Shown here in pieces: positions 12,348-63,045 of a stretch of 64,000 nt of DNA. The position numbers and the translations under genes were made by a program. The notes below the pieces were generated by a model. It worked only from the letters and a program-made list of their open reading frames with translations, ran no database searches and was not told the DNA's origin. The stretch is taken from IMG/VR virus record IMGVR_UViG_3300031485_000046. One strand, given 5' to 3'. Each line of letters opens with the position of its first letter. Position 1 is the first letter of the stretch. This DNA is from a virus.

Positions 12348-12914
12348 ATGGCATATCGAAAATCAGGGAGACCTTTAGCAGTAGCAGAACCGTGGAATGA
12401 ATCAATCCCAGAAAGGGCGTATGATCTTTGCCTTCTAGGATTGCGTGATGCCGATTTAGCCACGGCATTCGGAGTTTCTATATATACCATTGATAAATGG
12501 AAACAGACTCATCCAGAGTTTAGAGAAGCACTATCCAGAGGTAAAGAACAAGCTGACGCTAAAGTGGCAGACGCACTTTACCATAAGGCAGTAGGCTATG
12601 CCCATAAAGCTGTGGACATCAGAATAGTTGACGGCGAGGTAGTGAAAATACCATACACTAAAATCTATCCACCAGATACTACTGCCTGCATATTCTGGTT
12701 GAAGAATAGGCAAAGACAGTACTGGACGGATACCAAGCAAAATGTTCATACTGGTACAGTGGGTGTGGAACATACTATGAGACGTCAACTTGACCTTTCT
12801 GATTTCTCCAAAGAAGAACTTGCCCTAGCAGAAAAACTAGCCTCTAGGATGCTTCAGGAGGGTACTCAGGATGCAGAGTTTACAGAAGAGGGGGAGAATG
12901 ACGGGGATGAGTAA
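12348..12914 (+). CDS. terS: terminase small subunit
   Basis: 188 aa directly upstream of and overlapping large terminase; HTH-like N-terminus 'LATAFGVSIYTIDKW' and 'IFWLKNRQRQYW' segment typical of small terminases. Confidence 0.65.
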   Translation: MAYRKSGRPLAVAEPWNESIPERAYDLCLLGLRDADLATAFGVSIYTIDKWKQTHPEFREALSRGKEQADAKVADALYHKAVGYAHKAVDIRIVDGEVVKIPYTKIYPPDTTACIFWLKNRQRQYWTDTKQNVHTGTVGVEHTMRRQLDLSDFSKEELALAEKLASRMLQEGTQDAEFTEEGENDGDE

Positions 12915-14466
12915 ATATGAACGTAAGGACGCCTTAAAACGCCAAAGAGAAAACATCATCCCAAAATCAGATAGGTTCCAAGCATTACTTTTGAACCCAT
13001 TGCAGATAAAAGCAGAAAAATGCCGTAGGTCCCTATTTGAATTTATGAAAGAATTCTGGCCAGAAGTATCCACAAGTGACCCTACATGGAATTGGCATCT
13101 AGAATACCTAGCTAACGAACTGGAAAGGATGATGTATAGAGTAGCAAACAGACAACCAAAAGAATACGACCTCATAATAAACATAAGCCCCGGTACCACA
13201 AAGTCTACCCTATGTTCCATAATGCTGAATGCATGGGTGTGGGCTAAATGGCCTTGGCTCCGATTCATCAACGCATCCTATTCTGGAGCCCTATCTCTGG
13301 AACATTCAGAATTGTGTCGTGACCTTATACGGTCAGAACGATACAAAAGGTTATTCCCGTATTTGGAAATAAAGCAAGACAAGGATACCAAAACTAACTT
13401 TAAAATTTTATATGATGAAGAGCGTCTGGATTCCATAACAGGCGAAGCATCTACACTAAAAAAGAGTGGTGGTAACAGATACTCCACCTCCGTAGGCGGC
13501 ACCTTGACTGGATTCCATGCTGATGTACTGTTAGTAGACGATCCATTGGATCCGCAAAGAGCTGTATCCGACGTGGAAGTCCTTAAAGCCAACACATGGA
13601 TAGATCAGACACTATCTACCAGAAAGGTAGATAAAGCGGTAACACCAACCATAATCATAATGCAAAGGCTCCATCAGAATGACCCTACGGGTTATCTGCT
13701 ATCCAAGAAGAATAAAAAGATAAAGCATATCTGCCTACCAGGTGAAATACGGAATTACAGGAAAAATTTGAAACCTAAAGCCCTAGCCAAGTATTATAAG
13801 GATGATCTGTTCGACCCTATAAGAATGCCATGGAAAGTCCTTGACGACCTAAGAGTAGACCTTGGTGAATTCGGGTATGCTTCCCAGATCGGCCAATCCG
13901 CAGTATCAGACAAGGGCAACTTATTCAAGGTAGAACACTTTCAAATCATCCATAGTATGGTACCAGACCCAGACATAGTAAGATCCATACGATACTGGGA
14001 CAAAGCCGGTACAGCTGGAGCTGGAGCATACACGGTGGGGGTACGAATGCTTGCATTGAATAATGGAAAATTCCTTATCACGGATGTTAAAAGAGGGCGG
14101 TGGTCCACAGAACAACGGGAAGCCATCATCAGACAGACTGCAGAAGCCGACGGTACAGACACAATAATCTGGCATGAACAAGAACCAGGTTCAGGCGGAA
14201 AAGAATCCGCAGAAGGCACTATAAGAAACCTAGCTGGATACACCACGTATGCAGATAGGGTAACTAGAAACAAGGAAATGAGAGCGGATCCATATTCAGT
14301 CCAAGTAAATAATGGTAACGTACTGTTACTATATGCTCCGTGGAACCAAGACTTCATAGAAGAGCACAGATACTTCCCAAATTCAACATATAAGGATCAG
14401 GTAGACGCAGCCTCAGGAGCGTTCTCTAAGGCAGTACGGAAAAAGATAGCCGGTGCGATAGGATAA
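12907..14466 (+). CDS. terL: terminase large subunit
   Basis: ~520 aa; ATPase P-loop-like 'NISPGTTKST', acidic 'LLVDDPLD', C-terminal nuclease-like region; SD AGGGGGAG before ATG 12907 (track ORF starts 12871). Confidence 0.8.
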   Translation: MSKYERKDALKRQRENIIPKSDRFQALLLNPLQIKAEKCRRSLFEFMKEFWPEVSTSDPTWNWHLEYLANELERMMYRVANRQPKEYDLIINISPGTTKSTLCSIMLNAWVWAKWPWLRFINASYSGALSLEHSELCRDLIRSERYKRLFPYLEIKQDKDTKTNFKILYDEERLDSITGEASTLKKSGGNRYSTSVGGTLTGFHADVLLVDDPLDPQRAVSDVEVLKANTWIDQTLSTRKVDKAVTPTIIIMQRLHQNDPTGYLLSKKNKKIKHICLPGEIRNYRKNLKPKALAKYYKDDLFDPIRMPWKVLDDLRVDLGEFGYASQIGQSAVSDKGNLFKVEHFQIIHSMVPDPDIVRSIRYWDKAGTAGAGAYTVGVRMLALNNGKFLITDVKRGRWSTEQREAIIRQTAEADGTDTIIWHEQEPGSGGKESAEGTIRNLAGYTTYADRVTRNKEMRADPYSVQVNNGNVLLLYAPWNQDFIEEHRYFPNSTYKDQVDAASGAFSKAVRKKIAGAIG

Positions 14467-14522
14467 ACATATAAAGGTAACCAAACAGATAACCCGTTTA
14501 GCCGTAGGCTATAGGGATAAAT

Positions 14523-14568
14523 AATGATACAGATAGATATGGATTCACCTATCTGTATCATTTTTTTA
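14523..14568 (+). terminator. rho-independent terminator downstream of terL
   Basis: Perfect 11-14 bp stem GATACAGATAG/CTATCTGTATC (14526..14536 / 14549..14559), 12-nt loop, TTTTTTT run 14561..14567. Confidence 0.75.
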
Positions 14569-15078
14569 TGGTAAAATACTCATACCGTAAGGTAAGCTAT
14601 GATATAGTAAAAATTGGGTAGTTTGGTAGTTATAGAGGTAGTCAGATAGAATAGGAAAAAAACTATCCATAAAAATAACATAGATAGGTAGACTAATATG
14701 GTATAATCTATAGAAACCTATATATCAATACAATCCATACTTTTACTATCCAAATAAGCTAATAATCCAATATAATCCAGATAATCCTAAACAGGTACAT
14801 ATAGTCAATTATAATAAGATACAGAAGAGGCAATCCCAAATCATACTAAGATGGTATACCAATATATCTGATACACCATATAACCTATCTCATGTAACCA
14901 TACGAATATGCATATGGATAAACAGTAAGAACGACATAATACAAATATACACCAATTCAATCAAGCTAATAGGAACATACGCAATAAGCTAATATCCGAT
15001 AAGCCTAAACAGGTACATAGTCAATATCAATATCTAGTCAATAGTAAACTAACATGCGAGCCTCCCTAAGGTAGGTCC

Positions 15079-15104
15079 CATAAATTGGTACCATAAATTG
15101 GTAC
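15079..15104. repeat. tandem 13-bp repeat CATAAATTGGTAC x2 (contains GGTACC palindrome)
   Basis: Two adjacent identical 13-mers read directly. Confidence 0.6.
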
Positions 15105-15439
15105 CATATCCTGGTTTACCAGCATGTGGTAACCTTACCTCCATCCTTACCATCACCTATACCACCATTCATCTGGATCTAATCTGCCTATACCCATATT
15201 TAATCTATGGTATTTAATAAATGGACACCATATTTCATAAATGGATAGCCAAAACCATACAAGCCATATCCTATTCCGTATTCCAATCCAATATATAGAT
15301 ACCTATACCTCCACTTCACCATGTACTGGGAAACCCAGTAATTGGTATAAAAAAATGGGACCTAAGTGTGGTAACCTAGATTTATCTATGTATGATCGTT
15401 TATATAGTGAAACCGAGATTTATACCTATTATTTTGTCC

Positions 15440-15900
15440 TCCACTATACCAATACGGTGGTATGCTGGATTGTAATCAGGAAATTCAAATACGGAGTAGA
15501 CCTCGATGTTTTACTATGTATATATAGAACGTATCTTTATAACAGTACCTACCAACTATCCACTACGGTGGTGTGTTGGATTGTACTTATAAATATGTGG
15601 AAAATAGAAAATGGGAGGTATTTCGATGTTTTACTATGTAGAACCGACGGTCTGTTTTTGTCAGGAATCTTCCAACTATCCACTACGGTGGTATATTGGG
15701 AGATACTTACCGAAACGTGTATGATATGAAATGGGAGGTATTTCGATGTTTTACTATGCATATATAGAGATATTGATTGGTTCCCATTTACCCTATATCT
15801 TACCCAGTATCCACTACGGTGGTATGTTGGGTAGTATTAATCCGTAGTATGGGTAGGTACTGTCTAGATTGTTTATCTATATATAGAGAATGAATAAGGT
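15440..15900. repeat. ~110-130 bp tandem repeat array, 4 units, each with blocks 'CGATGTTTTACTATG' and 'TATCCACTACGGTGGT'
   Basis: Block A at 15504, 15624, 15744; block B at 15451, 15560, 15680, 15811; track ORFs 15241..15729(+) and 15549..15761(-) merely translate the repeats. Confidence 0.75.
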
Positions 15901-16410
15901 GTGTCCATTCCCAAAATACCTCAGGCCCTCCATTATCTAGAATTTTCCCCAATTATAAAAATTTGTCAACCTCTGGCAGCTAAATGGAGTATAAGTATCC
16001 TACGGATACATGTATAAAAATGAAATCTTGGACACGTATCCAACGGATTATTTTATAAAAATGGGATTGGATTATTTTTATTTATACAGGTTCAATTTGA
16101 GAAAATGCACCTGTTTGAGTTTTCGATGGGTAATTGGTATAACAATAGTTGGATTATATAAAAACGGTATGGGATAATACCAGACCCGTTTTGAAGGCAT
16201 AAATTGCATAAATCAGTTCCGTTTATTTTTTTATTTCCTATGGATGGTACCGAATATTTCGAGGAGAAAAGGAATCCATAAAAATCATACGAGGTTTTTC
16301 ATGCTACCTAATCCAAAATACGTGGCGAATTTTCGGCTCCGTAATCGTTTTTCTAGAGGTGAGCGGTGAATTCATACCGGTAGAAAATGAGCGCCTTCTA
16401 GCGCACCGCT

Positions 16411-16449
16411 GGCGGAGAAACTCATTGGCGGAGAAACTGGCGGAGAAAA
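16411..16449. repeat. iteron cluster GGCGGAGAAA(C) x3
   Basis: Copies at 16411..16421, 16427..16437, 16439..16449; same 11-mer as at 4117..4142. Confidence 0.65.
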
Positions 16450-16457
16450 TGGATGGA

Positions 16458-16548
16458 TTTTTCTGTTTTTCTGTTTTTCTGATTGTTGTACATCGTTTCT
16501 ACATTCTACATTCTACATTCTACATTCTACATTCTACATTCTGCATTT
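16458..16548. repeat. microsatellite-like tandem repeats: TTTTTCTG x3 then TACATTC x6-7
   Basis: 8-mer repeats about 16458..16482; heptamer array 16500..16541 with a degenerate seventh unit to 16548. Confidence 0.7.
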
Positions 16549-17060
16549 CAGAAGAATGCATGTGGTACTTTATAAGATGCATGTATGCAATGTCATATGC
16601 ATCCTTAATTGTCTCCTGATTACTATACAATTATACACTATTCCTATTCCTGTTTCAATCGTAACAGATATTTTACTATTATATAATAATCTATAGTATT
16701 GTGTCATATTGTAGAATATTCTTATATTCATGAATATCAGACAAGCATAATGCAGAATGCATATTATACAATGCATTATTCAGCTATATTTTTCACAAGC
16801 ATTTTTTAGTAGTACAATGCATAATGCAGAATGCATCATGCATTATTCAATGAAACATTTCACAAGTGTTCATACAGTGCATACAATACATTCTGCATCA
16901 TGCATCATGCATTATTCAGCTATATTTTTCACAAGCATTTTTTAGTAGTACAATACATTCTGCAATATGCATTGTATAGCATGTATTATTCAATGAAACA
17001 TTTCACAAGTGTTACTGTATCCGAAGAGTATACAATGCATTTTTCAATGAAATATTTCAC
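16540..17060. repeat. ATGCAT-dense region with ~126-140 bp direct repeats (units contain 'TCAGCTATATTTTTCACAAGC' and 'TTCAATGAAACATTTCACAAG')
   Basis: About a dozen ATGCAT hexamers in ~500 bp; 19-mer TCAGCTATATTTTTCACAA at 16780 and 16906 (also 4831); track ORFs here are repeat translations. Confidence 0.65.
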
Positions 17061-17191
17061 AAGCGATACTGTGATCGAATTGTATCTGAATGACTATACA
17101 ATTCACTATTATTTTATAAAACTCTATAGTATTGCAGAATACAGTAGAATTCAGTAGAATTATATTAAGTGTATAGTCTTTTCATGCATAG

Positions 17192-17219
17192 TTGACATTC
17201 TATCGTAGAGTGCTATACT
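17192..17219 (+). promoter_or_regulatory. sigma70-like promoter TTGACA-N16-TATACT
   Basis: TTGACA 17192..17197, TATACT 17214..17219, ~120 nt upstream of small gene start 17337. Confidence 0.55.
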
Positions 17220-17336
17220 GTACTCGTAGCAAGCGAGCGAGCAAGTTCTTTGACAACTGAAGAAGCAAGCTCATAACAGAGTAACACTTCTTCAGAACAT
17301 ACGCGCACAACGTTGCGCAGAAAGAGAGTGTGTAGC

Positions 17337-17675
17337 ATGACAACGAGCAGCAAGAAGAACGTAAACAGTAAGAAAGCTGAAATAGTCGAACAGAAAGCAG
17401 TTGAAGTAAAGAAAGAAGAAGTAAGAGAAGCAAAGAAGATTAGCAATACTCAGAAGTGTGCTGATATGATCATGCAACTTGCGAAAGACGCTAAGTATAC
17501 TCGCAGTGAAATTTGTAATGCTGTTTCAGATGCACTAACAGCATTAAGCATAGTCACAGTAAAGACTATGCTTTCAGACTTGCAGAACAGCAAGTATGCA
17601 AGACGTTATAGCACTCATACTATCGCAGTAAACAAAGAAACAAAGATTGTAACAGTAGCAAGTGAGATAAAATGA
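17337..17675 (+). CDS. hypothetical small protein
   Basis: ATG 17337 with SD AAAGAGAG 8 nt upstream (track ORF starts at TTG 17313); 112 aa, Lys/Glu-rich N-terminus. Confidence 0.5.
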   Translation: MTTSSKKNVNSKKAEIVEQKAVEVKKEEVREAKKISNTQKCADMIMQLAKDAKYTRSEICNAVSDALTALSIVTVKTMLSDLQNSKYARRYSTHTIAVNKETKIVTVASEIK

Positions 17676-17884
17676 AGTATCAGCATGTTGAACGTTCGCA
17701 AGCTCTCGCAGTAAGTGACGTTGAAACTTTGCAGAATATTGCAAAAAGACGTCTGATCGATTTGAAACAGCTTGCAAGAGAAGCAGACTCTTTACTTGTC
17801 TTTTCAGTAATAAGAAATACATGTATTCAAATCGATCGAAGCATCGATGATGCACTTGAAAACGCAAGAAAATTACTGAAGTAG
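17672..17884 (+). CDS. hypothetical small protein
   Basis: 70 aa; ATGA start/stop overlap with preceding gene; followed by strong terminator. Confidence 0.5.
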   Translation: MKYQHVERSQALAVSDVETLQNIAKRRLIDLKQLAREADSLLVFSVIRNTCIQIDRSIDDALENARKLLK

Positions 17885-17889
17885 TACAA

Positions 17890-17940
17890 AAAAAGATAGT
17901 CAAGTATCTACAATTCGATACTTGACTATCTTTTTATCTC
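17890..17940. terminator. strong (bidirectional-capable) rho-independent terminator
   Basis: Perfect 15-bp stem AGATAGTCAAGTATC/GATACTTGACTATCT (17894..17908 / 17917..17931), 8-nt loop, flanking A-run and T-run. Confidence 0.8.
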
Positions 17941-17960
17941 ATTTGAAAGAGAGTGATACT

Positions 17961-18284
17961 ATGTTAGATAATCAGTATGAATTACATCAAAAGATACAAA
18001 AAATAGAACACAAGCATATCAGATTACATGCAAGCAATTGTATGTACAAATTGATGAATATTCAATTGTTACTTGAAGAACAGATTAATCTACTCATTTC
18101 TGATATTGTAGCAAATGATGCTTCTGTTAGTGAAATATTGCTAACAGAACGTCAAAGTACATTTGATAATGAACTTTTTGCGATAACGACAAAAGAAGAT
18201 AGAAAAGCAATAGCAATACTGCATAATACTATAATCGATAGTATGAATGCAGTAAGAAAGACAATCATCTATACAGACGAATAA
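17961..18284 (+). CDS. hypothetical small protein
   Basis: ATG 17961 with SD GAAAGAGAG 7 nt upstream; track start (TTG 17922) lies inside the terminator stem so was moved. Confidence 0.5.
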   Translation: MLDNQYELHQKIQKIEHKHIRLHASNCMYKLMNIQLLLEEQINLLISDIVANDASVSEILLTERQSTFDNELFAITTKEDRKAIAILHNTIIDSMNAVRKTIIYTDE

Positions 18285-18323
18285 AATTACACAATAGAGC
18301 ATAATTGATAGCAATTGAATAGA

Positions 18324-18361
18324 AAAGAGTAGTCAATACTAGACTACTCTTTTCTTTTTTA
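18324..18361 (+). terminator. rho-independent terminator
   Basis: 11-bp stem AAAGAGTAGTC/GACTACTCTTT (18324..18334 / 18342..18352), 7-nt loop, T-run to 18360. Confidence 0.7.
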
Positions 18362-18745
18362 TTCATGCATACAATGCATGATGCATCCTGCACTATGCAT
18401 AGTATAAGCGTTCATAGTAGCATTTGATAACATAACACTACACTATTTATTACAATTAGACAATATACTACAATATGATAGTGTAGTGTGTATTGTCTAT
18501 TCTATACACTACAATATAGACAAGTATACACTACAATATAGACAAGTATAGAATAGAGTATAATAATCTATAGTATGCTACACTATATAGCAATATAATA
18601 TAATAATATATAATTGTATAGTAAAGCAGATACAATTCAATACAATGACTGCGCTAGTATACAATGCATGATGCATGATGCATCGTACACAATGCATAAT
18701 GTAAAATCGATTTTACACGTTGCAGAATGCATGCTGGCTCCTGGC

Positions 18746-18902
18746 CCCCTCTAAAATTGTGACAAATTTTTCTGGATATTAAAATGGGTAATCCATTATT
18801 TTCTAAAGCATATTCATTATTTATTCTACGTATCTTTCACACACCCCTCGTAAAATTGCTACTGATTTTTCCCAATACTAAAGTGGGTAATCCATTATTT
18901 TC
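18746..18902. repeat. two ~58-bp direct repeats sharing 'AAAATTG..TTTTTC..TAAA.TGGGTAATCCATTATTTTC'
   Basis: Copies at 18746..18803 and 18844..18902; inverted partial copy 'TAATGGATTA..ACCCA' near 18961; partial copy near 19110. Confidence 0.6.
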
Positions 18903-19426
18903 GATATATCTATTCTGTATGACTGTATAGATAGTATAAGATGCAGTATCCAATTTTAACTAATGGATTAATATACCCAATTTACTCATACTATACGTAT
19001 CTTCATGGATCCGTTTTCTTTCGTCTTTATTTTTACCATACCCCGTCATTCTGTATGAATTTATCCAAAAATAACCGCATAAATATTTTGTAAAAATTTA
19101 TATGGGAGTTAAAATGGGTTGATTAGATCAGTAGAGAGGTTAGATCACACTAGGGAGTTAGATACGATGCATCCTAGCCCGGATCCTGATAGGCTAGGAT
19201 GCATATAGAAACTATGTTTGTCGTAATATATCTTGAAAACGCATCAGATTCGTTTCATACTGTGCGATTTCCTTGCTTATGGAAGCTGTTCGTTCTGTTT
19301 CAGACGTTGTTTCTATCGTCTAGAGTGAAAAAGATCGAATACCGTGCAAGGATTTAACGTGTCATGCCATCCCATTCGGTTGTTCCCTCCGTCCTTGCGA
19401 CTTTCCTATAAGGGATGGAAACCGGG

Positions 19427-19645
19427 TCATTTCGCCCGCTCCTCCCAGAACCGTCTGCGTCGCTCCTCCCTGTGACGCTTGATATTCTCCCGCACCCTCT
19501 GCGTGCGGGGCGGGAACGTGTTCAGATGGGTCAGCACCGGCTCCACGCTGACAGCTCTGCCGAATTCCCTCTCCCATTCCTGGGCGTAGATTTCCTCGTA
19601 GGATAACATTTCGCGAAATCTGAGCCCCGTGCATCGTCCGCTCAT
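19427..19645 (-). CDS. small basic hypothetical protein inside a GC-rich islet
   Basis: 72 aa ORF starting 1 nt after kdsB stop; local GC visibly about 60% versus ~40% surroundings; no recognised motif. Confidence 0.3.
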   Translation of the reverse strand: MSGRCTGLRFREMLSYEEIYAQEWEREFGRAVSVEPVLTHLNTFPPRTQRVRENIKRHREERRRRFWEERAK

Positions 19646-20436
19646 TCCTTACCCTCCTTTTTTTCTATAATTTCATCATATTCATTTTCTTTACCAGAGT
19701 TTATTATACAACGAACAGCTTCCAAATCAGCAGGAGTATCTACACTAGGTCCAACTTTTTTTGCTCTTGTTATTTCTACTTTAATGGAAAAATCATGTTC
19801 TAATATTCTGAGCTGTTCCAGTGATTCTGCTGATGCCAAAGGTGTTTGTGGCATTTTGGCATAATAATGGATTAAGAAACGTCTAGTAAATCCATAAATT
19901 CCTATATGTCGGTAGATGGGATATACTTCTTCCGGATCTCTAATAAAAGGGATAGGAGACCTACTGAAATATAAAGCATCTCCATTTATTCTGAATGCCA
20001 CTTTTACTACCGATGGATCATTGATAGTAGCGGTATCTGTAATAAGGGCACATATCGTAGCAGATTCCGTAGCCCTATTTTCAGTTTTATAAAATAATGA
20101 TATTACTTCATCAATCATACAAGGATTAAGTAATGGTTCATCCCCTTGTATGTTTATCACTATATTATTATTAGAGAATTTTTTAGCTATTTCCACAACT
20201 CTACTAGTTCCGTTTGTATGATTTGGAGAAGTTAGCATAGCTTCTCCACCGAAATTATTTACAGCCTGCACGATTCTTTCATCGTCAGTAGCTACAATCA
20301 ACCGGTCAAGTAAAGTAGATCGTGAGGCTCGCTCGTACACTCTCTGGATCATTGTTTTTCCGCATATATCAGCTAGAGGTTTACCGGGGAGCCTTGTAGA
20401 ATTGTATCTAGCGGGGATAACTCCTAAAGTTATCAT
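19642..20436 (-). CDS. kdsB: 3-deoxy-manno-octulosonate cytidylyltransferase (CMP-Kdo synthetase)
   Basis: 264 aa; near-collinear with KdsB hallmark segments 'VIPARYNSTRLPGKPL', 'VATDDERI', 'QGDEPL', 'ALYFSRSPIP', 'HIGIYGF', 'EQLRILE', 'VDTPADLE' (compared from memory with E. coli KdsB). Confidence 0.85.
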   Translation of the reverse strand: MITLGVIPARYNSTRLPGKPLADICGKTMIQRVYERASRSTLLDRLIVATDDERIVQAVNNFGGEAMLTSPNHTNGTSRVVEIAKKFSNNNIVINIQGDEPLLNPCMIDEVISLFYKTENRATESATICALITDTATINDPSVVKVAFRINGDALYFSRSPIPFIRDPEEVYPIYRHIGIYGFTRRFLIHYYAKMPQTPLASAESLEQLRILEHDFSIKVEITRAKKVGPSVDTPADLEAVRCIINSGKENEYDEIIEKKEGKE

Positions 20437-20455
20437 TATTTATCACTTCCATTCA

Positions 20456-20602
20456 TTATTTAAGATTATGTGGTACTTTTTTGTCAAGTTCCAGTAATTT
20501 TGCATTAACTTTTTCTAGTTCAGCCATGAGAAATATTACCATATCGCATCTATCAGGTAGTATTTTTTCTTTACCTGTTACTTTCCTCCATAATTCTACC
20601 AT
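20456..20602 (-). CDS. small protein (48 aa), paralog of C-terminal domain of 21367..21669 product
   Basis: Own translation: MVELWRKVTGKEKILPDRCDMVIFLMAELEK... aligns with '...AVRLWRKTTGKDFIMPDRCDLVVYLMEELDK' (about 20/38 identical); below the ORF-track size cutoff. Confidence 0.4.
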   Translation of the reverse strand: MVELWRKVTGKEKILPDRCDMVIFLMAELEKVNAKLLELDKKVPHNLK

Positions 20603-20658
20603 CGGGATTTGTCCAAAGTTTCTTGTTATTGTCGTATTTCTATCCAGTTCTATAATAC

Positions 20659-21195
20659 TTATTCAGAAAGGTTGTCATGTTCACTTGCATTTTCCTCCTT
20701 TGTTGGAAGTGGTACCGGTAACTTTTCTTTTATGCAATTCATAAGGATTGTATATTTCCTTTCTTGCATCATTTCTAATGCTTTTACCATCGTTTTTCCC
20801 CAACCATTACATGAATATTTTCCTAAGTCTTTAATGTAGGCAACGTATCCTTTCATTCCGTTTAGTTCTGTAGTCATTGGCTGAATTGTAATGGAATACG
20901 GAATTTTCATCAATTCATCTATAGTGGGATCCTCGTTTCTGTTTATATTTTGTGAAATTACCGACATATTTATCATGTCAAACCTATTAGACATACGGTC
21001 AGGTACGTTAATCGTAGCACCACATCCGGAGCATCGCAAAATTAAGGAATCTAATTCTGCAATCATTTTATATGGATTTGGATACGCATACTGTATTTGG
21101 TCAAGAGTGTCAATTGGTTTAGCGCAAAGTGGGCAAATTATTTGTCTACCGTCACAAAACAATACATAACGCCCTTGTCCTATAGAAAGACTCAT
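20659..21195 (-). CDS. hypothetical protein with N-terminal zinc ribbon and HicB-like C-terminal region
   Basis: 178 aa; CxxC..CxxC; C-terminal 'YSITIQP..GYVAYIKDLGKYSCNGWGKTMVKALEMM' resembles HicB/UPF0150 pattern (weak). Confidence 0.5.
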   Translation of the reverse strand: MSLSIGQGRYVLFCDGRQIICPLCAKPIDTLDQIQYAYPNPYKMIAELDSLILRCSGCGATINVPDRMSNRFDMINMSVISQNINRNEDPTIDELMKIPYSITIQPMTTELNGMKGYVAYIKDLGKYSCNGWGKTMVKALEMMQERKYTILMNCIKEKLPVPLPTKEENASEHDNLSE

Positions 21196-21389
21196 TCTTC
21201 CATCTCCTTTTTAAGCAAAGCCTTCTGCATTTTCCCCAAAGCCGCAAACAACGTATCTTTACAACCCGTATAGATATACAGACTGCCCACAACTTTACCA
21301 TCAACGAGTACAGTATATGTAGGAGATTTGATTGGCCCATGGTTCTCTTCGAGTATTATCACTATTTCATTCCCCCTTTTCCATTTCAC
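21192..21389 (-). CDS. hypothetical small protein
   Basis: 65 aa ORF overlapping neighbours by 4 and 23 nt. Confidence 0.4.
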   Translation of the reverse strand: MKWKRGNEIVIILEENHGPIKSPTYTVLVDGKVVGSLYIYTGCKDTLFAALGKMQKALLKKEMEE

Positions 21390-21669
21390 GTATTCTACGT
21401 TTAGCTTTATCCAATTCCTCCATCAGATATACTACTAAATCACATCTGTCTGGCATGATAAAATCTTTCCCTGTTGTTTTTCGCCATAGTCTTACCGCTC
21501 TCATATCCGCTTTCCATACAATATCGAACACATTCTGGAGTTGTTTAGCGTCTTCTTTCAAGGAATCCACGAGCATTTTCATATTTTCTAACCGTTTTTT
21601 CAAGGAATCTCTCTCTTTAACCAGCTTTTCTAGTTCTTGCATGAGCAATTTTCGATCACTTTCCATCAA
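21367..21669 (-). CDS. hypothetical coiled-coil protein with C-terminal 'PDRCD' domain
   Basis: 100 aa; first gene of minus-strand operon divergent from portal gene. Confidence 0.5.
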   Translation of the reverse strand: MMESDRKLLMQELEKLVKERDSLKKRLENMKMLVDSLKEDAKQLQNVFDIVWKADMRAVRLWRKTTGKDFIMPDRCDLVVYLMEELDKAKRRIREMEKGE

Positions 21670-21796
21670 TGTCCCTCCTTATAAATTTGCGCTTCACTAT
21701 ATTATACAACACCATTTTTGCTCATTTATACATAGTTTTCCATGAAAATTGTGTTTAATTTGCAATTATAGTATACTGTATAGTTTTCTGTCATAG

Positions 21797-21825
21797 TAGA
21801 CAAAATTGAATTATGGGTATATAAT
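21797..21825 (+). promoter_or_regulatory. sigma70-like promoter TAGACA-N17-TATAAT for the late operon
   Basis: TAGACA 21797..21802, 17-nt spacer, TATAAT 21820..21825; SD AAGGAGG and portal start at 21848. Confidence 0.55.
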
Positions 21826-21847: not shown

Positions 21848-23308
21848 GTGAGTAGGATAGAAAATATCAGTACCAACGAATTGGTTGGGCAATTACAGCG
21901 GATTACAGCTATGGCTGAACTGGCTACAAGAATGAATGTCGGTGCTAGGATGGGAATGCAGTATGACGGCCAACGGGATATTGCAAAAGCTCTTGGCTAC
22001 CCACAAACAATACGGTACAACGACCTCCTTGCCGCATATACCCGTCAGGATATGGCGAAAGCCATTATAGATCGTCCCGTAAAATCTACTTGGCGTGGAG
22101 ATTTCAAGCTAGTAGAAACCCACAGGGACGATGATACGCAACTCGAAACAGCTTGGTCTACATTATATAGGAAATTGCACATAAAACAGAATTTCCTTAG
22201 AGTGGACAAGCTAGCCTGCCTCGGTAATTATGCTCTTCTTTTTCTTGGTTTCAATGATGTGAATAGTCCTGAAGAATTGATACGACCTGTTTCTGCTGGA
22301 GTAGGACGTGAATTGCTGTATTTGAAACCGTTTGGACAGAATGTCATTCAGATCAAAGATTGGGAAGATGATACAAGTTCACCTGAATATGGAATGCCGC
22401 TTATTTATGAAGTAGACATTGGAGAAGCATCATCTAAAAAGAGCCGAACTGTCAGCATCCATCGGTCAAGGATTGTTCATGTAGCTTTCGACCTACTTGA
22501 ATCAGAGTATGAAGGTGCTCCTGTTCTAGAAGTTGTTTTTAACCGTCTGAAAGACCTTGAAAAGCTAGTAGGCGGTTCTGCTGAAATGTTCTGGAGAGGT
22601 GCTAGACCTGGATATGCAGGTAAAATTGATCCAGAATACATGCTGACGAAAGATACGGAAGAGGGATTGAAACGCCAGCTGGATGAGTTTGAAAATAATC
22701 TGCGAAGGATACTCATGCTTGAAGGTGTTACACTCGATAGCCTTGAGCCGCAGGTAGTTGACCCGTCTATGCACGTTGATATCCAGATTCAGATGATTTC
22801 TGCTATTACTGGTATTCCTAAGAGAATTCTTACAGGAAGTGAGCGAGGTGATCTTGCTTCTACGCAAGACAAAGATAACTGGCTCGACCTTATCCAAATG
22901 CGACGGGAAGAATATGCTGAACCTAAGATCATTCGAGCAACCATTGACCGTTGTATTGAATTTGGTGTGCTTCCTAAGCCTGAAAAGGAAACATACAAAA
23001 TAAAATGGCAGGATCTTTATGCACCGTCTGTTAAGGATCAAGCGGACATTGGGCAGATACGTTCGCTTGCCTTGAAACATTATACGTACAATCCTGAAGC
23101 AGAGCAGTTTATCCCGTTTGAAGCGTTCCTTACATTCTTCCTTGGTTTGGAAGATGAGGAAGTGGAGTATATCAAAAAGCTCCAGCAAACAAGTGAAAGG
23201 ATATTGACGCCTGAATTAAAGGAACTTGCGAATGAAAATGCACCAACACGGAGAGAACGCCCTCCGCGGAGAGGAATACCTCGAGAGGATGAAGAACTAG
23301 AAAAGTGA
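21848..23308 (+). CDS. portal protein (DUF1073-like)
   Basis: 486 aa first gene of late operon, followed by head-morphogenesis and capsid genes; acidic C-terminus; family assignment from remembered patterns and gene order. Confidence 0.65.
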   Translation: MSRIENISTNELVGQLQRITAMAELATRMNVGARMGMQYDGQRDIAKALGYPQTIRYNDLLAAYTRQDMAKAIIDRPVKSTWRGDFKLVETHRDDDTQLETAWSTLYRKLHIKQNFLRVDKLACLGNYALLFLGFNDVNSPEELIRPVSAGVGRELLYLKPFGQNVIQIKDWEDDTSSPEYGMPLIYEVDIGEASSKKSRTVSIHRSRIVHVAFDLLESEYEGAPVLEVVFNRLKDLEKLVGGSAEMFWRGARPGYAGKIDPEYMLTKDTEEGLKRQLDEFENNLRRILMLEGVTLDSLEPQVVDPSMHVDIQIQMISAITGIPKRILTGSERGDLASTQDKDNWLDLIQMRREEYAEPKIIRATIDRCIEFGVLPKPEKETYKIKWQDLYAPSVKDQADIGQIRSLALKHYTYNPEAEQFIPFEAFLTFFLGLEDEEVEYIKKLQQTSERILTPELKELANENAPTRRERPPRRGIPREDEELEK

Positions 23309-23448
23309 GCAGGCTATTGGGGCAGACTAGGGAAATAACTACACTTACTTATAATGGGCAGGTTTATTTGCCCTAGTCTGCTTCTCCTGCTCCAGCTATT
23401 CTTCATTCTCCTGATAATATAGATTGCAAAGGAGGTGGTGATTAAACA

Positions 23449-24873
23449 ATGACAACCGCAGTAATCAGTATGTATCAGGTGCAGGCAAATAATTATGAAA
23501 TTCGTATGGAAACGTACATGGGAAGAAAGCATTTGATCGTTCCTGTAGTGATGATGGTAGAAGGTGTGCATTGTGGTAGTGCTGGCCCGTTGTTTCATTC
23601 AATAGAAGAGCTTGGTAAGTACCCTGATTCTTGGAATGGAATCCCTGTTTCTATTCAGCATCCCGAGCAAGATGGGCAGTATATTTCCGCAAACAGTCCT
23701 GAAGTTCTTGAACGGCAGACTGTTGGGCAGGTTTTCAATACGTTTGTTGATGGAAATAAGCTAAAAGCAGAGTGCTGGATTGACATTGAACGTATTACCA
23801 CTATTAGTCCAGAAGCATACGCATATCTCCAGAATAAACGACCTCTGGAAGTGAGTATTGGTGTGTTTTCAGATGATATTCCACAAGAAGGCGATTGGAA
23901 CGGAGAACATTATATAGCTGTTGCCACCAATCATCGTCCTGATCATCTTGCTCTTCTTCCTGGTGGCAGAGGTGCGTGTTCCTGGGCAGATGGAGCAGGT
24001 ATCAGAGCCAATTCTATGAAGAAAGGAGGAGAGCCGGTGGATATTACTGCAACGATAAAGGATCTTGTGTGTAAAGGATATGGAGTTCTATCGTATCAGA
24101 GTAATGAAGGTTTTCGTTCCATTATGTCGCAGATACAGGATGTGCTCAATGGGTACGATACGGGTCTAAAACTGCATTATCTGTCGGAAGTATACGAGGA
24201 TTTTTTCGTATATGAGGTGAATTCTCGTATCAATCCAGAAACCTACATTACATCCGTAAAGTATTACAAACGTCCGTATTCTGTTAATGAAGATGGAAAA
24301 GTTACGCTGGGAGATGTAGCTACGGAAGTGATGCGCAAAATTGTGTATGATGAGGTTAAAACTAATTCCAAGTATCGAAGAAAGGATGATGTGAAAGTGG
24401 ACAAAGCAAAAATGGATATTCTGGTCCAGAGCGGAGTGTTTTCCGAAGCTGACCAGGAGTGGCTTACGGGACTCGATGCCGAGCGCCTTGATAAGCTGGT
24501 TACTGCTTGCACTAAGAAAGTGGAAACTCCGCAGGCGAATGAGGCGAAAGTGGATATTCCCACAGTCATTCAGGCACTGGCTGAACAGTTTAAGACTCCT
24601 GAGCAGTACATCCAGCTGATGCCGGAAGAAATGCGTGATCAGATGGAATCGGGACTGAAACTGCACAGGGAACAGCGTCAGGCAGTCATTGACAAGATCA
24701 AGGCGTTCAATGTATTTTCGGAAGAAGAGCTTCAGAAAAAATCTATGGATGAACTGAACAAGATTTCTAAGCTGATTCCTGCGCCTAGGGATTATTCGCT
24801 TGCCGGAGCCAAATCTGTCAATACGAATACGGAAACTGAGGAAGTTCTGCTTCCTCTCGGGCTGAAAGCCTAA
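23449..24873 (+). CDS. head morphogenesis protein (putative prohead protease/scaffold, DUF2213-like)
   Basis: 474 aa between portal and capsid genes; SD AAAGGAGG; coiled-coil-rich C-terminal half consistent with scaffold function. Confidence 0.55.
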   Translation: MTTAVISMYQVQANNYEIRMETYMGRKHLIVPVVMMVEGVHCGSAGPLFHSIEELGKYPDSWNGIPVSIQHPEQDGQYISANSPEVLERQTVGQVFNTFVDGNKLKAECWIDIERITTISPEAYAYLQNKRPLEVSIGVFSDDIPQEGDWNGEHYIAVATNHRPDHLALLPGGRGACSWADGAGIRANSMKKGGEPVDITATIKDLVCKGYGVLSYQSNEGFRSIMSQIQDVLNGYDTGLKLHYLSEVYEDFFVYEVNSRINPETYITSVKYYKRPYSVNEDGKVTLGDVATEVMRKIVYDEVKTNSKYRRKDDVKVDKAKMDILVQSGVFSEADQEWLTGLDAERLDKLVTACTKKVETPQANEAKVDIPTVIQALAEQFKTPEQYIQLMPEEMRDQMESGLKLHREQRQAVIDKIKAFNVFSEEELQKKSMDELNKISKLIPAPRDYSLAGAKSVNTNTETEEVLLPLGLKA

Positions 24874-24894
24874 TAAAAAGGAGGGTAAAAGAAT

Positions 24895-25386
24895 ATGGCG
24901 TACAATACCATCAAAGTTAAGAAGTATTCGGATGTTATTGAGGAGAAAGTTGCCAGTGCGGCAATCACTCCGGGTATGCTTCTCATCATTGAAAGTGCAG
25001 GTACTGTGAAAGCGCACGATCAGGCGGATAAGGACGCATTTCCTATTTTCGCACTTGAGGACGAACTTCAGGGCAAAGGGATTGATGATGCGTATGCAGC
25101 GAATGACCCTGTCCAGTGCTGGATTCCCTATCGCGGAGATATTGTGAATGCTATTCTCGCTGACGGACAGAAGGTTGTTATTGGGGATCCTCTTACCAGT
25201 GATGGCTACGGTCGCCTGAAGAAGCATGTTACCGACGTTGGTGCGTCTGCGGCTGAACTTGTTTCCGTGTACCCGCTACAGATTGTTGGGTATGCCGCCG
25301 AAGCTCTTGACCTGTCTGGTTCTAGCGGAGCCGAAGTTTCAGGCCCTCTCGGCTATCACAAGCGCCTGCTCGTCAGGATTGCGTAA
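24895..25386 (+). CDS. hypothetical head structural/decoration protein
   Basis: 163 aa immediately upstream of major capsid gene; SD AAGGAGGG. Confidence 0.55.
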   Translation: MAYNTIKVKKYSDVIEEKVASAAITPGMLLIIESAGTVKAHDQADKDAFPIFALEDELQGKGIDDAYAANDPVQCWIPYRGDIVNAILADGQKVVIGDPLTSDGYGRLKKHVTDVGASAAELVSVYPLQIVGYAAEALDLSGSSGAEVSGPLGYHKRLLVRIA

Positions 25387-25413
25387 TCACAAACATAAGG
25401 AGGAGTGCTGAAT

Positions 25414-26535
25414 ATGGAACCCAATGTCTATATGGATTTTCTTGCTAACGGAGCGGCTCAGGGAGAAGTTGCCCAGAACCTTCAGGTGAATGGTCGGCTT
25501 GATCCTGCTATGCTTCGTCCGTATATTGGAAGGGATGGAGCATCCTACATCACCGTCTGCAAACACGGTGCTGATCCCAAGGATCCTAAGAGTTATCAGT
25601 CTATCCGCGTGAATTCTGGTGCAACTCTTCGCAGAGAAGAGTGGCAGTATCTGGACGAGGCTGTTCTCAATGTTTCTCGGTATCGTCTTGGCGGTATTGC
25701 TGACCTTGAGGCAAACGGACTTGTTTACAACCTCAACAATGCTATGGGAACCACCGTTCTTGAGTACCATGATGTATCTGACGCTTTCGAGGCAGAACTT
25801 ACGATGGATGGGGTTACTAGGAGCAAGGGAGACCGTGTGAATTTCGGTGCAAAGTACCTGCCCATTCCTATCATTCATGTGGACTACGAGATTAATGCTC
25901 GTGTTCTTGCCGCTTCTCGTAGCCTTGGTAATGCGCTCGATACGACTCAGGCAGAAGTTGCCGCTCGTAAGGTTATGGAGAAGCTAGAGAAAATGATGTT
26001 CACCAGCGAAACTTACTCGTTTGGTGGGGGAACAATCTATTCTCTTGTCAATCATCCTCATCGTAATCCTGTTACTCTCACGGTGAATTGGGATGATAGT
26101 ACGTCTACTTCTTCTGGTGATCCTGTCATTACAGGTGCAAAGATCATTCAGGATGTTCTTGCTATGAAGCAGGCAAGCATTGATGCTTACCACTATGGTC
26201 CCTGGATGCTATACATTCCGACCGCATACGAAACAGTCCTTGACTCGGATTATGATACCGTTACGCCTGGCACTACGATTCGGGAGAGGATTATGAAGAT
26301 CGAAGGTATCAAAGGTATCAAGGTTATTGATGTACTCGCTTCCAATAACGTGCTCCTTGTGCAGATGACCCCCGATGTGGTTCGCCTTGTGAAGGGCATG
26401 GCTATTCAGAACGTGGAATGGCAGACTGAGGGACGCTTCATCAATAAGTACAAAGTTATGACGATCCAGGTTCCTCAGGTTCGTTCTGACTACAACCAGA
26501 AGAGCGGCATCGTTCATCTCGCTCCTGCACCCTAA
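25414..26535 (+). CDS. major capsid protein (DUF2184-like)
   Basis: ATG 25414 with SD AAGGAGGA 9 nt upstream (track begins GTG 25405); ~373 aa; position after portal/scaffold. Confidence 0.7.
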   Translation: MEPNVYMDFLANGAAQGEVAQNLQVNGRLDPAMLRPYIGRDGASYITVCKHGADPKDPKSYQSIRVNSGATLRREEWQYLDEAVLNVSRYRLGGIADLEANGLVYNLNNAMGTTVLEYHDVSDAFEAELTMDGVTRSKGDRVNFGAKYLPIPIIHVDYEINARVLAASRSLGNALDTTQAEVAARKVMEKLEKMMFTSETYSFGGGTIYSLVNHPHRNPVTLTVNWDDSTSTSSGDPVITGAKIIQDVLAMKQASIDAYHYGPWMLYIPTAYETVLDSDYDTVTPGTTIRERIMKIEGIKGIKVIDVLASNNVLLVQMTPDVVRLVKGMAIQNVEWQTEGRFINKYKVMTIQVPQVRSDYNQKSGIVHLAPAP

Positions 26536-27015: not shown

Positions 27016-27729
27016 ATGCGGGCGTGGAATACTCCGAGGATATGGGATAAAGGTGAATGTTGGATAATAGGAGGAGGACCTTCTATTATGCGACAGTTCC
27101 ATATTCCTGAGAATGTGATTGAGGCGGTTAGAGAAAAAAGATTACCGCTTTCTGCATATTCTCCGTACATGGAAAGCATTCATTCTAAGCATATCATCGG
27201 AGTAAACATGGCATTCCAGCTAGGAAATTGGGTTGATTTTTGTTTCTTCGGAGACGATGGTTGGTTTCGGGACCATAGAAAAGAATTAGCCCAATTTACT
27301 GGTGTAAGGGTATCTTGCGCACCTATGTTCAGTAAAAATACGTACCATGCAGATAATGGGGAACGTATTAAGTACCTAGCGCAGGATCCTAAAAAATCAC
27401 ACGGTATTAGTGAAGTACCTTACACCGTATGTTGGAATGCAAATAGCGGAGCGGCGGCAATCAGCCTAGCTTCTCATCTAGGTGCTAAAAAGATTGTTCT
27501 GTTAGGATTCGATATGCAGTTAGATCCTAATGGAAATAGTCATTGGCACAAAGAGTATCAAATGAATCCAGCAAAACGATCCGTGTTTCCTCGACACCTT
27601 AGAGGGTTTCCAATTATCGCCGCGGATGCTAAACGGATGGGCATCGAAATACTAAATGCCTCACCTGAAAGCGTAATAGACGATTTTCCTAAAATGACAG
27701 TGGAGGCGATATTGAATGGTTCTCCATAA
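27016..27729 (+). CDS. CstII/Maf-like (GT42/DUF115-type) ulosonic-acid transferase-like protein
   Basis: 237 aa; 'IIGGGPS' N-terminus and 'NSGAAAISLASHLGAKKIVLLGFD' core resemble CstII 'IIAGNGPS' and 'SGVYMCAVAIALGYKEIYLSGIDF' (recalled, not searched). Confidence 0.55.
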   Translation: MRAWNTPRIWDKGECWIIGGGPSIMRQFHIPENVIEAVREKRLPLSAYSPYMESIHSKHIIGVNMAFQLGNWVDFCFFGDDGWFRDHRKELAQFTGVRVSCAPMFSKNTYHADNGERIKYLAQDPKKSHGISEVPYTVCWNANSGAAAISLASHLGAKKIVLLGFDMQLDPNGNSHWHKEYQMNPAKRSVFPRHLRGFPIIAADAKRMGIEILNASPESVIDDFPKMTVEAILNGSP

Positions 27730-28330
27730 AAACAATATCGCGGTTATAGGACACGGTCCTAGCACTCGTGGAAGGAAACTAGGCAGTTTCATTAACCTTT
27801 GTGATACGGTCATTCGCATGATCGAATGTGATTGGCAGGATGCAGAAGATTACGGTAGTAAATATACGATCGGTGTATATGCTACGGGAGGATCTGACGA
27901 TTTTACAAAGGTGATTGAACGAAAGCCTTCTCTTTGCTGGTGGGTGTACGTTGCGGCTGGAACCCGTCCTTCTACGGCGATGAATGATGATACAGTAGAT
28001 GCTCCAGGTGTTGCGGGTCGTCCGATACGGTGGTTACGAAGAACCGTATGGGATTGGATCGGTGATAATAAAAAGTTCTCTAGAGGTACTGCTGCCGCGA
28101 TTGCGTCTATGGCGATCCTAAAACCCACTACAGTTCATTTAGTTGGGTTTGATGATGTTGCAAGGGGTGGAATGCTGAAAGGAGCATATCATCCTCCTGA
28201 GTTGCAACAGTACCTCAAAGAACAAGGAAAGACACTTGCCAGAAGTGAAACAGACCATGATTGGAATAATGAAGGCACCGTACTCCAACGTGCCGCAGAC
28301 TATTACGGAGTTGAGGTGAATTTTCTATGA
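27716..28330 (+). CDS. CstII/Maf-like transferase-like protein (paralog of 27016..27729)
   Basis: 204 aa; 'IAVIGHGPS' and 'SRGTAAAIASMAILKPTTVHLVGFD' mirror the upstream paralog. Confidence 0.55.
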   Translation: MVLHKNNIAVIGHGPSTRGRKLGSFINLCDTVIRMIECDWQDAEDYGSKYTIGVYATGGSDDFTKVIERKPSLCWWVYVAAGTRPSTAMNDDTVDAPGVAGRPIRWLRRTVWDWIGDNKKFSRGTAAAIASMAILKPTTVHLVGFDDVARGGMLKGAYHPPELQQYLKEQGKTLARSETDHDWNNEGTVLQRAADYYGVEVNFL

Positions 28331-29565: not shown

Positions 29566-30278
29566 AACCGTATGTAGAATCTCCCATTATCATAACAGGT
29601 TGTCCACGAAGCGGAACTAGCATCATTTCTGGGATGTTAGAAATATGTGGTGCATTTGCAGGAACTATTCCACAGCCTACGAAACACGAAACAAGAGGCA
29701 TGGGAGAGAATCGGGTTATATATGAGGATGTTGTTAAACCGTATATTCAGAGTTTGCAAGCGGATCCATCTGGACAATGGCCATTGATGGATTCTGAAAA
29801 ACTGATGATTCCTATCGACTGGGAATCAATGATTTCAGACGCCTTGCACAAGGATGGCTATATGGGAGGCAAATGGCTATATAAGAGTAATACTGCGGCT
29901 CTTATGTGGAAAGTGTGGTCCTACGCCTATCCTAGCGCCAAATGGGTCCTAGTACGCAGGCGTACAGGTGACATAGTTTCTTCATGTTTGCAGACCTCGT
30001 ATATGAAAGCATTCAAAAATCCTGCATATCGTAAGGAAATTGGAGCGGAAACAGAATCAGAAGCATGGATCCATTGGGTACATAAGTATGAAGAAGCCTT
30101 TGTAGGGATGTTGACTGCGGGAGTTAATTGTAAGGTTGTCTGGCCGGAAAGATTCGTAAGAAACGATTATCAACAGTTGTATGAAGTAATTGAATGGGTA
30201 GGGCTTGAATGGAAATCTTCTGTAGCAGATTATCTAGACCCAAAGCTATGGAAGAATGAACGGAAGGAGGAGTGCTGA
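29562..30278 (+). CDS. sulfotransferase (PAPS-dependent type)
   Basis: ATG 29562 overlapping upstream stop (ATGA); 5'-PSB-like 'IIITGCPRSGTS' and 3'-PB-like 'VRRRTGDIVSS'. Confidence 0.6.
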   Translation: MKPYVESPIIITGCPRSGTSIISGMLEICGAFAGTIPQPTKHETRGMGENRVIYEDVVKPYIQSLQADPSGQWPLMDSEKLMIPIDWESMISDALHKDGYMGGKWLYKSNTAALMWKVWSYAYPSAKWVLVRRRTGDIVSSCLQTSYMKAFKNPAYRKEIGAETESEAWIHWVHKYEEAFVGMLTAGVNCKVVWPERFVRNDYQQLYEVIEWVGLEWKSSVADYLDPKLWKNERKEEC

Positions 30279-40525: not shown

Positions 40526-40742
40526 AACGTTACTTTCGGGGCAAGGTTGCTCCGTAACGGTGTAGTAATCAACACAAGGGACGCTTTTTATTACTCTTTA
40601 TATCAAGGGATGTCTCCGGTTGTTTTTAGTTTTGTTGATACAGGGGCATCGACAGGATCAACTACTTATAAGATACAGGTTAAGCGGGTTCGGTCTCTGG
40701 ACTGTCATGTTTCGGCATCGGAGAGGACGATGGTGGTTCATT

Positions 40743-63044: not shown

Positions 63045-63045
63045 C

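Follow-up and report, generated by a model that had tools for sequence, protein, structure and literature searches.

A KdsB homolog on a strain-variable phage island and its possible link to capsid-adjacent sialyltransferase-fold enzymes

The kdsB gene and its product

The 64,000-nucleotide viral record IMGVR_UViG_3300031485_000046, referred to over its whole length as the window, carries on its minus strand (19642–20436) a homolog of kdsB, the gene for the cytidine monophosphate (CMP)-Kdo synthetase (3-deoxy-manno-octulosonate cytidylyltransferase), which activates the outer-membrane sugar Kdo. The open reading frame (ORF) runs from ATG to TGA, encodes 264 amino acids and is identified through Pfam, NCBIfam and Protein Data Bank (PDB) matches. 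The original prediction had placed a phage-encoded KdsB at exactly this span, leaving its strand unstated, and had described the product as near-collinear with the bacterial enzyme across a series of hallmark segments; all of these are found in the ORF, which contains PARYNSTRLPGKPL, VATDD, QGDEPL, ALYFSRS, GIYG, LEQLR and VDTPADLE. A Shine-Dalgarno-like GGAAGTGA lies a few bases upstream of the ATG, and the C-terminus of the product bears an acidic and lysine-rich extension of about 18 residues.

The Pfam family CTP_transf_3 covers the product end to end (192 bits, E 1.5e-56), and four KdsB models score above their cut-offs: NF003952 (287 bits, cut-off 193), NF003950 (273 bits, cut-off 234), NF009905 (269 bits, cut-off 255) and TIGR00466 (212 bits, cut-off 155). 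The E. coli-type equivalog model NF003948 gives 211 bits, under its cut-off of 281. Separation from the NeuA, PseF and LegF synthetases, which had been put forward as a check, is clear: the PseF model TIGR03584 reaches 46.5 bits against a cut-off of 205.7 and covers the N-terminal half only, while NeuA enzymes in the PDB score 22–32 bits, against 195 for KdsB. Rather than sialic or pseudaminic acid synthetases, the best 13 matches of a PDB-wide search are all KdsB or KpsU, led by E. coli K-CKS 1GQ9 (195 bits, E 9e-57, residues 6–245). By these scores the match to KdsB far exceeds chance, and the product almost certainly belongs to the KdsB family.

The phage protein is of the same fold family and length class as the bacterial CMP-Kdo synthetases (E. 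coli KdsB/L-CKS, capsule-specific KpsU/K-CKS 1GQ9 and Aquifex KdsB 2Y6P), with which it shares the PARYxSxRLPGKPL segment, the QGDEP and VDTP aspartates, ALYFSRSPIP, HxGIY and ESLEQLR. Its nucleotide-binding P-loop is VIPARYNSTRLPGKPL, with R10, R15 and K19. Specifically, D99 (QGDEP) aligns with D98 of K-CKS and D233 (VDTP) with D225, and ALYFSRSPIP, HIGIYG and ESLEQLR are also kept in this alignment. Both of these aspartates serve as ligands of metal A in the two-metal mechanism of KdsB (PMC3149649). In an alignment with 43 bacterial homologs of 50–66% identity, all 44 sequences have R10, R15 and K19, and the phage protein keeps 84 of the 87 family-conserved columns (≥85%), deviating at A81V, V147A and G215D. 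A81V and V147A are conservative changes. At codon 215 (19792–19794), by the ESLEQLR sugar-binding segment, the phage has Asp and all 43 bacterial homologs have Gly. A sister copy that is 99.3% identical, present in two contigs from two other sequencing runs (L069 and L070), keeps G215, and the change may be a private, deleterious mutation. Between the window gene and the L069 copy there are no synonymous differences; the six differing codon positions comprise one in the core and the replaced 3′ end, and dN/dS is not computable. The product of this allele is probably an active enzyme, a judgement set below that of family identity because G215D affects a glycine that is otherwise invariant.

After the near-identical phage copy, the nearest proteins share 61–64% identity, and the named members of their cluster are Aminivibrio and Synergistaceae; the Synergistota are a diderm phylum. 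These nearest homologs are chromosomal kdsB genes: one (P0004) lies in the lipid A/Kdo cluster msbA-lpxK-kdsA-kdsD-waaA-X-kdsB, followed by glycosyltransferases, and another (P0003) is surrounded by ordinary bacterial genes. By sequence affinity, the phage gene is a captured kdsB of the housekeeping, lipopolysaccharide (LPS) type, closest to Synergistota. Unlike its bacterial counterparts, it has no kdsA, kdsC, kdsD or waaA neighbours, and it differs from them further in its C-terminal tail, in G215D and in codon composition. Its guanine-cytosine (GC) content is 36%, with 23% at third codon positions (GC3), against 62–63% and 76–77% in the nearest bacterial genes. With a GC3 of 23% against 76%, it is therefore no recent capture from those Synergistota genomes; either an unsampled low-GC lineage was the donor, or the gene has stayed long in AT-rich phage DNA. 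The retention of the conserved residues despite this shift in codon composition implies long purifying selection.

The affinity of KdsB points, at the level of sequence, to Synergistota as a possible host. Labels of metagenome-assembled genomes containing phage-like contigs, which range from Mariniphaga and Omnitrophota to Bathyarchaeia, were rejected as host evidence on the grounds of unreliable binning, and a crude scan of the lysis module for spanins, as a diderm marker, found no canonical pair. An IMG/VR search returned no close relatives of the phage-type kdsB. Among JGI metagenome contigs the best kdsB match has 52% identity, and none of 80 loci carries the head-module cassette described below or phage hallmark genes.

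The variable island and the phage genome

The gene sits in a swappable accessory island of 2.4 kb (19355–21792) that fills the gap between terminase and portal, and whose genes, orf100, orf65, a HicB-like gene, orf48, kdsB and orf72, are all on the minus strand. Directly downstream of kdsB, the 72-residue orf72 (19427–19645, minus; GC 60%, GC3 75%) overlaps the kdsB stop codon with its ATG (ATGA). It has no Pfam or PHROG match and is not in the sister copy of L069/L070; it appears to have been inserted recently, from a genome of high GC. Neither tRNAs nor any Rfam family at gathering score was found, and for this reason the GC-rich patch following kdsB is interpreted as a small ORF and not as a known RNA. 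On the other side, orf48 (20456–20602, minus) lies 19 nucleotides upstream of kdsB; it is a gene call in contig L071 and has no PHROG match. It is followed by the gene for a 178-residue zinc-ribbon and HicB-like, antitoxin-like protein (20659–21195, minus; phrog_497, E 1.1e-5, with a weak zinc-ribbon Pfam match) and by orf65 (21192–21389, minus), which is 95% identical in the related phage L013 and 49% in L007.

At the right border of the island, a sigma-70-like promoter candidate (ATGACA-18-TATAAT, 11/12; 21765–21794, minus) faces the island genes, back to back with a second 11/12 candidate on the plus strand (21797–21825) that faces the portal gene. This arrangement is suggestive of a promoter role, although both candidates are consensus matches only and the site total in the region is not above shuffled expectation.

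Comparison with related phages defines the island precisely. L016, with 89–93% nucleotide identity over 11.5 kb of structural genes, shares sequence with the window as far as 19354 and once more from 21793 onwards. Between conserved flanks, kdsB is missing both there and in L007, so that it lacks the conservation within a viral lineage looked for in an auxiliary metabolic gene (AMG). In the more distant relatives L011, L018 and L019, the large terminase gene directly abuts the portal gene. In L069/L070, homology to the window ends at 19651, nine bases short of the kdsB stop, and other small ORFs follow. In sum, kdsB is an accessory gene that varies between strains and lies on a moron-type island with active recombination.

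Viral genes flank kdsB on both sides, with terminase upstream and portal downstream. The small terminase (12348–12914; phrog_309 TerS) precedes the large terminase (12871–14466, plus; Terminase_6C), and the head module (21848–26535, plus) encodes the portal (Phage_portal_3, 130 bits), protease/scaffold, decoration and HK97-like major capsid (DUF6260/phrog_771) proteins. The 60,630-bp Logan contig SRR34859213_1977 is 100% identical to the window and bridges its two ends by 611 bp, which lie within a gene for a 512-residue DnaB-like helicase. The window is a circular permutation of a genome of about 64.6 kb, lacking these 611 bp only. In this independent contig the arrangement of terminase, kdsB island and portal is 100% identical, and the kdsB gene is present in at least three sequencing runs.

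Further structural and lysis genes encode a tail terminator and tube region, a tape measure, a lambda-J-like tip, an M15 endolysin and a holin-like protein; the phage is tailed and siphovirus-like. The replication and nucleotide genes comprise PolA with an intein, UDG-exonuclease, clamp, clamp loader, RecA-like and SbcCD-like proteins, primase, SNF2 and DnaB-like helicases, ThyX, dUTPase, dNMP kinase and a sigma-70-like factor. The phage looks virulent, and lysogenic conversion is unlikely, because the scanned ORFs include no integrase and the replication set is full.

Pfam scans covered about 50 ORFs, including every ORF large enough for Kdo-pathway enzymes. They found no KdsA (DAHP_synth_1), KdsD (SIS+CBS), KdsC (Hydrolase_3), NeuB-type, NeuA or PseF protein, no second cytidylyltransferase and no further gene for LPS or capsule; of sugar-nucleotide synthetases, the genome yielded KdsB alone. 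The original prediction had reported no kdsA or kdsC in the window and had concluded that Kdo itself would be supplied by the host. Both statements hold: the first extends to all of the phage genome but the 611 bp inside the helicase gene, and with no Kdo-synthesis or nonulosonate gene found in a near-complete genome, Kdo therefore comes from the host.

Between terminase and the kdsB island lies an AT-rich (29–40% GC), low-coding and repeat-dense region of 4.8 kb (14500–19350). Five ATGCAT-rich repeats of about 53 nucleotides occur at 16751–17067, with inverted copies at 18366–18716, and four others, spaced about 120 nucleotides apart, at 15439–15841. The small ORFs of the region have no PHROG match. 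The Logan contig of the same phage breaks in this 4.8-kb region and lacks window positions 15639–19619. Stop-codon recoding was tried as an explanation for the low coding density of 14.5–19.3 kb and rejected: all three stops are used by confident genes, and no long ORFs are opened. The region could be an origin, a packaging site or a regulatory region.

The capsid-adjacent cassette and the fate of CMP-Kdo

Downstream of the major capsid gene and a 142-residue ORF, and before the head-tail connector genes, four enzymes are encoded in a cassette on the plus strand. The first is a 237-residue protein of sialyltransferase/Maf/MptE fold (27016–27729), a candidate CMP-ulosonic-acid transferase that belongs to the family of P1 PmgO/PmgP and D3 orf7 and matches phrog_4603, labelled 'alpha-2,3-sialyltransferase' (E 3.7e-34). 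The second (27716–28330; 204 residues) has the same fold and carries the motifs GHGPS and GTAAAIA...LVGFDD, with no family match. They are followed by a 412-residue fusion of an N-terminal S-adenosylmethionine-dependent methyltransferase with a C-terminal glycosyltransferase-like region (28327–29565; Methyltransf_23, E 2.3e-7; phrog_24759 and phrog_1962) and by a 243-residue sulfotransferase matched over its full length (29547–30278; Sulfotransfer_3, E 2.5e-11). Every relative examined (L007, L008, L010, L012, L013, L016 and L021) has the cassette in syntenic order, and in L011 it is enlarged by GT-D, GT2 and several methyltransferases.

The CstII/Maf-like transferases that the original prediction had named as possible users of the donor are borne out for the 237- and 204-residue proteins at the level of the sialyltransferase/Maf (MptE-like) fold, and not at that of sequence models: the MptE-like family PF01973 gives 19.8 bits (cut-off 34.6) and the PseD model NF050051 gives 15 (cut-off 670). 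PDB and NCBIfam searches with the two proteins returned no significant match, leaving the fold evidence to stand. With Maf and CstII/Cst-I (GT42) they have in common the fold and the pattern GxGPS, (S/T)xAAAI...GFD, which we take to be that of CstII. Maf has 632 residues, against 237 and 204 here, and the window proteins lie in a phage head module. Both are candidates for enzymes that use a CMP-activated ulosonic acid as donor; alternatively, they may have pyrophosphokinase activity, since MptE and TPK share this fold.

The family of the 237-residue protein occurs in 68 phage records, nearly all with Gram-negative hosts: Pseudomonas, Escherichia (including P1 PmgO/PmgP), Caulobacter, Brevundimonas, Stenotrophomonas, Salmonella and Cronobacter. 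Members are also found in Caulobacter and Brevundimonas jumbo phages. P1 PmgO/PmgP, annotated as 'putative morphogenetic function', and Pseudomonas phage D3 orf7 share about 28–30% identity with the window protein, and D3 orf7 (L152, 5031–5489) occupies the same place, between major capsid and head-tail adaptor genes. Tetraselmis thecae are rich in Kdo; matches to Tetraselmis viridis viruses were nevertheless given no weight as a pointer to Kdo, as their genomes of about 39 kb may be those of phages of associated bacteria. A truncated relative of the head module, with 50–81% amino acid identity, lies in a 2.4-Mb bacterial contig (L009; GCA_900198705.1, FZPS01000013.1, 708667–729371) and spans the portal gene to the gene for the 204-residue protein plus part of the methyltransferase-glycosyltransferase gene. 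It looks like a prophage remnant and could point to the host lineage of this phage group.

In the reading that we prefer, with a probability of about 0.4 for the chain as a whole, active phage KdsB would turn host-made Kdo and CTP into CMP-Kdo, raising the level of this short-lived donor in an infected diderm cell. The donor would be consumed by the phage's own two sialyltransferase/Maf-fold enzymes encoded beside the capsid gene, which would transfer Kdo, perhaps in methylated or sulfated form, to proteins of the virion or to others. That these enzymes are the main sink of CMP-Kdo is a tentative assignment, put at somewhat below even odds. The near-complete genome supports the link in that it encodes two sialyltransferase-fold enzymes and KdsB as the sole sugar-nucleotide synthetase found. 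The near restriction of the 237-residue family to phages of Gram-negative hosts, the position of D3 orf7 and the gene cluster of phage LR756500.1, described below, also speak for the link. E. coli K-12 is not known to make nonulosonic acid, which for P1, a carrier of members of this family, would leave CMP-Kdo as the available donor on that host. When expressed in E. coli, the Maf proteins of Clostridium botulinum and Geobacillus use CMP-Kdo as a donor and glycosylate Ser/Thr of their flagellin with Kdo (PMC11339370), and Maf glycosyltransferases and Kdo are also treated in bioRxiv 10.1101/2020.06.03.131540.

Several observations weigh against this supply route. The kdsB gene lies 6.6 kb from the cassette, on the opposite strand and in a separate unit. 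The cassette is retained in L016 and L007, neither of which has kdsB: L016 has 2.8 kb of unrelated small genes where the window has 2.4 kb, and in L007 (about 73% nucleotide identity) the segments matching 18698–18789 and 20631–20702 are about 390 bp apart, with no room for the gene. Virion glycosylation, on a rough estimate, needs far less CMP-Kdo than LPS synthesis supplies. None of 58 transferase-family loci has a KdsB- or NeuA-like ORF within 10 kb, and a dedicated, operon-type partnership of kdsB and transferase was rejected on this count. Moreover, P1 pmgO and pmgP are non-essential (PMC10695390). At most, kdsB would be an optional donor booster that the cassette can do without, since in related phages the same cassette works with CMP-sugar from the host alone.

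The same absence of cis-linkage counts in favour of a role in the host envelope instead. As a host-directed AMG, an active KdsB would sustain or boost the use of CMP-Kdo for lipid A-core or a Kdo capsule, keeping the envelope intact until lysis or changing the surface against superinfection, with the phage transferases uninvolved. This is the usual literature reading of viral kdsB (PMC9529941; PMC12801897; PMC10653327), and it accords with the closeness of the gene to housekeeping LPS genes beside waaA, kdsA and kdsD and with its place on a moron-type island, under its own sigma-70-like promoter candidate and away from the structural operon. Yet the genome has no other LPS or capsule gene among the scanned ORFs, a virulent-looking phage makes lysogenic conversion unlikely, the host's own enzyme should last through the lytic cycle, and related phages manage without kdsB; we regard a host-directed role as rather unlikely, though a serious alternative. 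A neutral passenger, brought in with a mobile island and held without a selected role, would account for the presence of kdsB in one island variant only and its absence from L016 and L007. The island junctions are recombinationally active, the 3′ junction differing in L069/L070 and the GC-rich orf72 being fused onto the stop codon; impairment by G215D at an invariant glycine, together with the exclusively non-synonymous differences from the sister copy, would fit the same account. It is opposed by the intact ORF, by the retention, despite the codon shift, of every catalytic residue and of 84 of the 87 conserved positions, with the long purifying selection that this implies, and by the recurrence of the gene across sequencing runs, so that the passenger account is judged improbable.

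A shifted role, in which the KdsB-fold enzyme activates another 2-keto-3-deoxy acid (a Kdo derivative or a Kdn-like sugar) or mainly consumes CTP, would suit the unusual sugar chemistry to which the phage methyl- and sulfotransferases point, as well as the C-terminal extension and the position of G215D beside the sugar-binding segment. With the KdsB-specific motifs all conserved, the KdsB-specific models above their cut-offs and no synthase for an alternative sugar found in the genome, it is very unlikely. Overall, the original interpretation of a genuine KdsB in a phage, host-derived Kdo and candidate phage transferases is upheld, and supply to those transferases remains our preferred reading. 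Two extensions of the donor-supply reading go further, by fold similarity and analogy. It is conceivable, though doubtful, that the phage decorates its virion proteins with Kdo, possibly methylated or sulfated, by the two head-module enzymes, kdsB having been acquired as a booster. By extension, and again with low probability, the widespread PmgO/PmgP/D3-orf7 family might comprise protein Kdo- or ulosonic-acid-transferases that draw on the CMP-Kdo of LPS-making hosts.

Known systems and other features of the genome

Mycobacteriophage virion glycosylation is a precedent for viral glycosyltransferases encoded beside capsid genes, and the giant virus CroV, which encodes Kdo metabolism, for a virus-encoded Kdo pathway; both differ from the window phage in enzyme families, hosts and sugars. 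We know of no phage virion that carries Kdo. If the sialyltransferase-fold proteins use CMP-Kdo, glycosylation of particles with Kdo would add a new type to the known virion modifications, with consequences for phage immunogenicity, receptor interactions and glyco-engineering; the question would be tractable in P1 and E. coli. The locus is thereby a pointer to an uncharacterised family, present in many phage head modules, that includes P1 PmgO/PmgP, D3 orf7 and proteins of Caulobacter jumbo phages.

Viral kdsB is already on record. The cyanomyovirus S-SCSM2R carries KdsB and KdsA (PMC12801897), and viral kdsB is listed in virome AMG catalogues (PMC9529941; PMC10653327); like the gene described here these are phage-borne, and they have been read as envelope- or LPS-related AMGs. 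The S-SCSM2R protein has 29% identity to the window KdsB and is paired with KdsA in a 244-kb T4-like genome, whereas here KdsB stands alone in a 64.6-kb phage. KdsB matches occur in 7 of 50,697 phage records, all at ≤49% identity and with no PHROG family; P1 and D3 are not among the seven. Megablast of 24 kb against the same 50,697 records gave no nucleotide match. What is new is one well-documented case without a nucleotide-level relative in that set, added to a short list of kdsB-carrying phages; the precisely bounded exchangeable island, the absence of the gene from sister genomes and its divergent codon composition make it useful for judging AMG calls in viromes.

A parallel in gene content is the uncultured 462-kb phage LR756500.1 (L153), in which a cluster at 123143–137814 encodes Capsule_synth (KpsS/KpsC-type), methyltransferase, sulfotransferase, GT2, polysaccharide pyruvyl transferase, methyltransferase, KdsA, KdsB and SIS isomerase, followed by a GIY-YIG homing-endonuclease-like ORF. 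Its KdsB is 45% identical to that of the window, and a homolog of the 237-residue protein is encoded elsewhere in its genome. Methyltransferases, a sulfotransferase and a glycosyltransferase are common to this cluster and the window cassette. In LR756500.1, kdsB is contiguous with the KdsA, SIS isomerase, Capsule_synth and pyruvyl transferase genes in a self-contained pathway, whereas the window gene is isolated from its cassette. The LR756500.1 cluster shows that phage Kdo activation can be coupled to the enzyme classes of the window cassette.

Elsewhere on the minus strand, a sigma-70 region-2 protein (5767–6360) and an SNF2-family helicase with an N-terminal DUF6011 (6542–8569) are encoded; that the phage has its own sigma factor implies that it directs late transcription, a point relevant to when the kdsB island and the cassette in the head module are expressed. 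The family A DNA polymerase (56263–58107, minus) is split by an intein (Intein_splicing, PT-HINT, about residues 189–308) with DNA_pol_A on both sides. A 7-deazaguanine pathway, located on the minus strand in the segments 61931–63188, 47192–47842 and 60957–61928, is represented by QueC (189 bits), a QueF-like protein (101 bits) and a YhhQ/Vut_1-type queuosine-precursor transporter (181 bits) and suggests DNA modification of the preQ0/preQ1 type. A 323-residue ORF adjoining these genes, with no match in Pfam, NCBIfam or PDB, could be a candidate transglycosylase. Finally, the tail-tip/fibre region (36000–42000) has a GC content of 49–55%, against 42% for the genome overall, which suggests that genes for host recognition have been exchanged in mosaic fashion with a gene pool of higher GC; together with the high-GC orf72, these tail genes hint at exchange with a high-GC genome.

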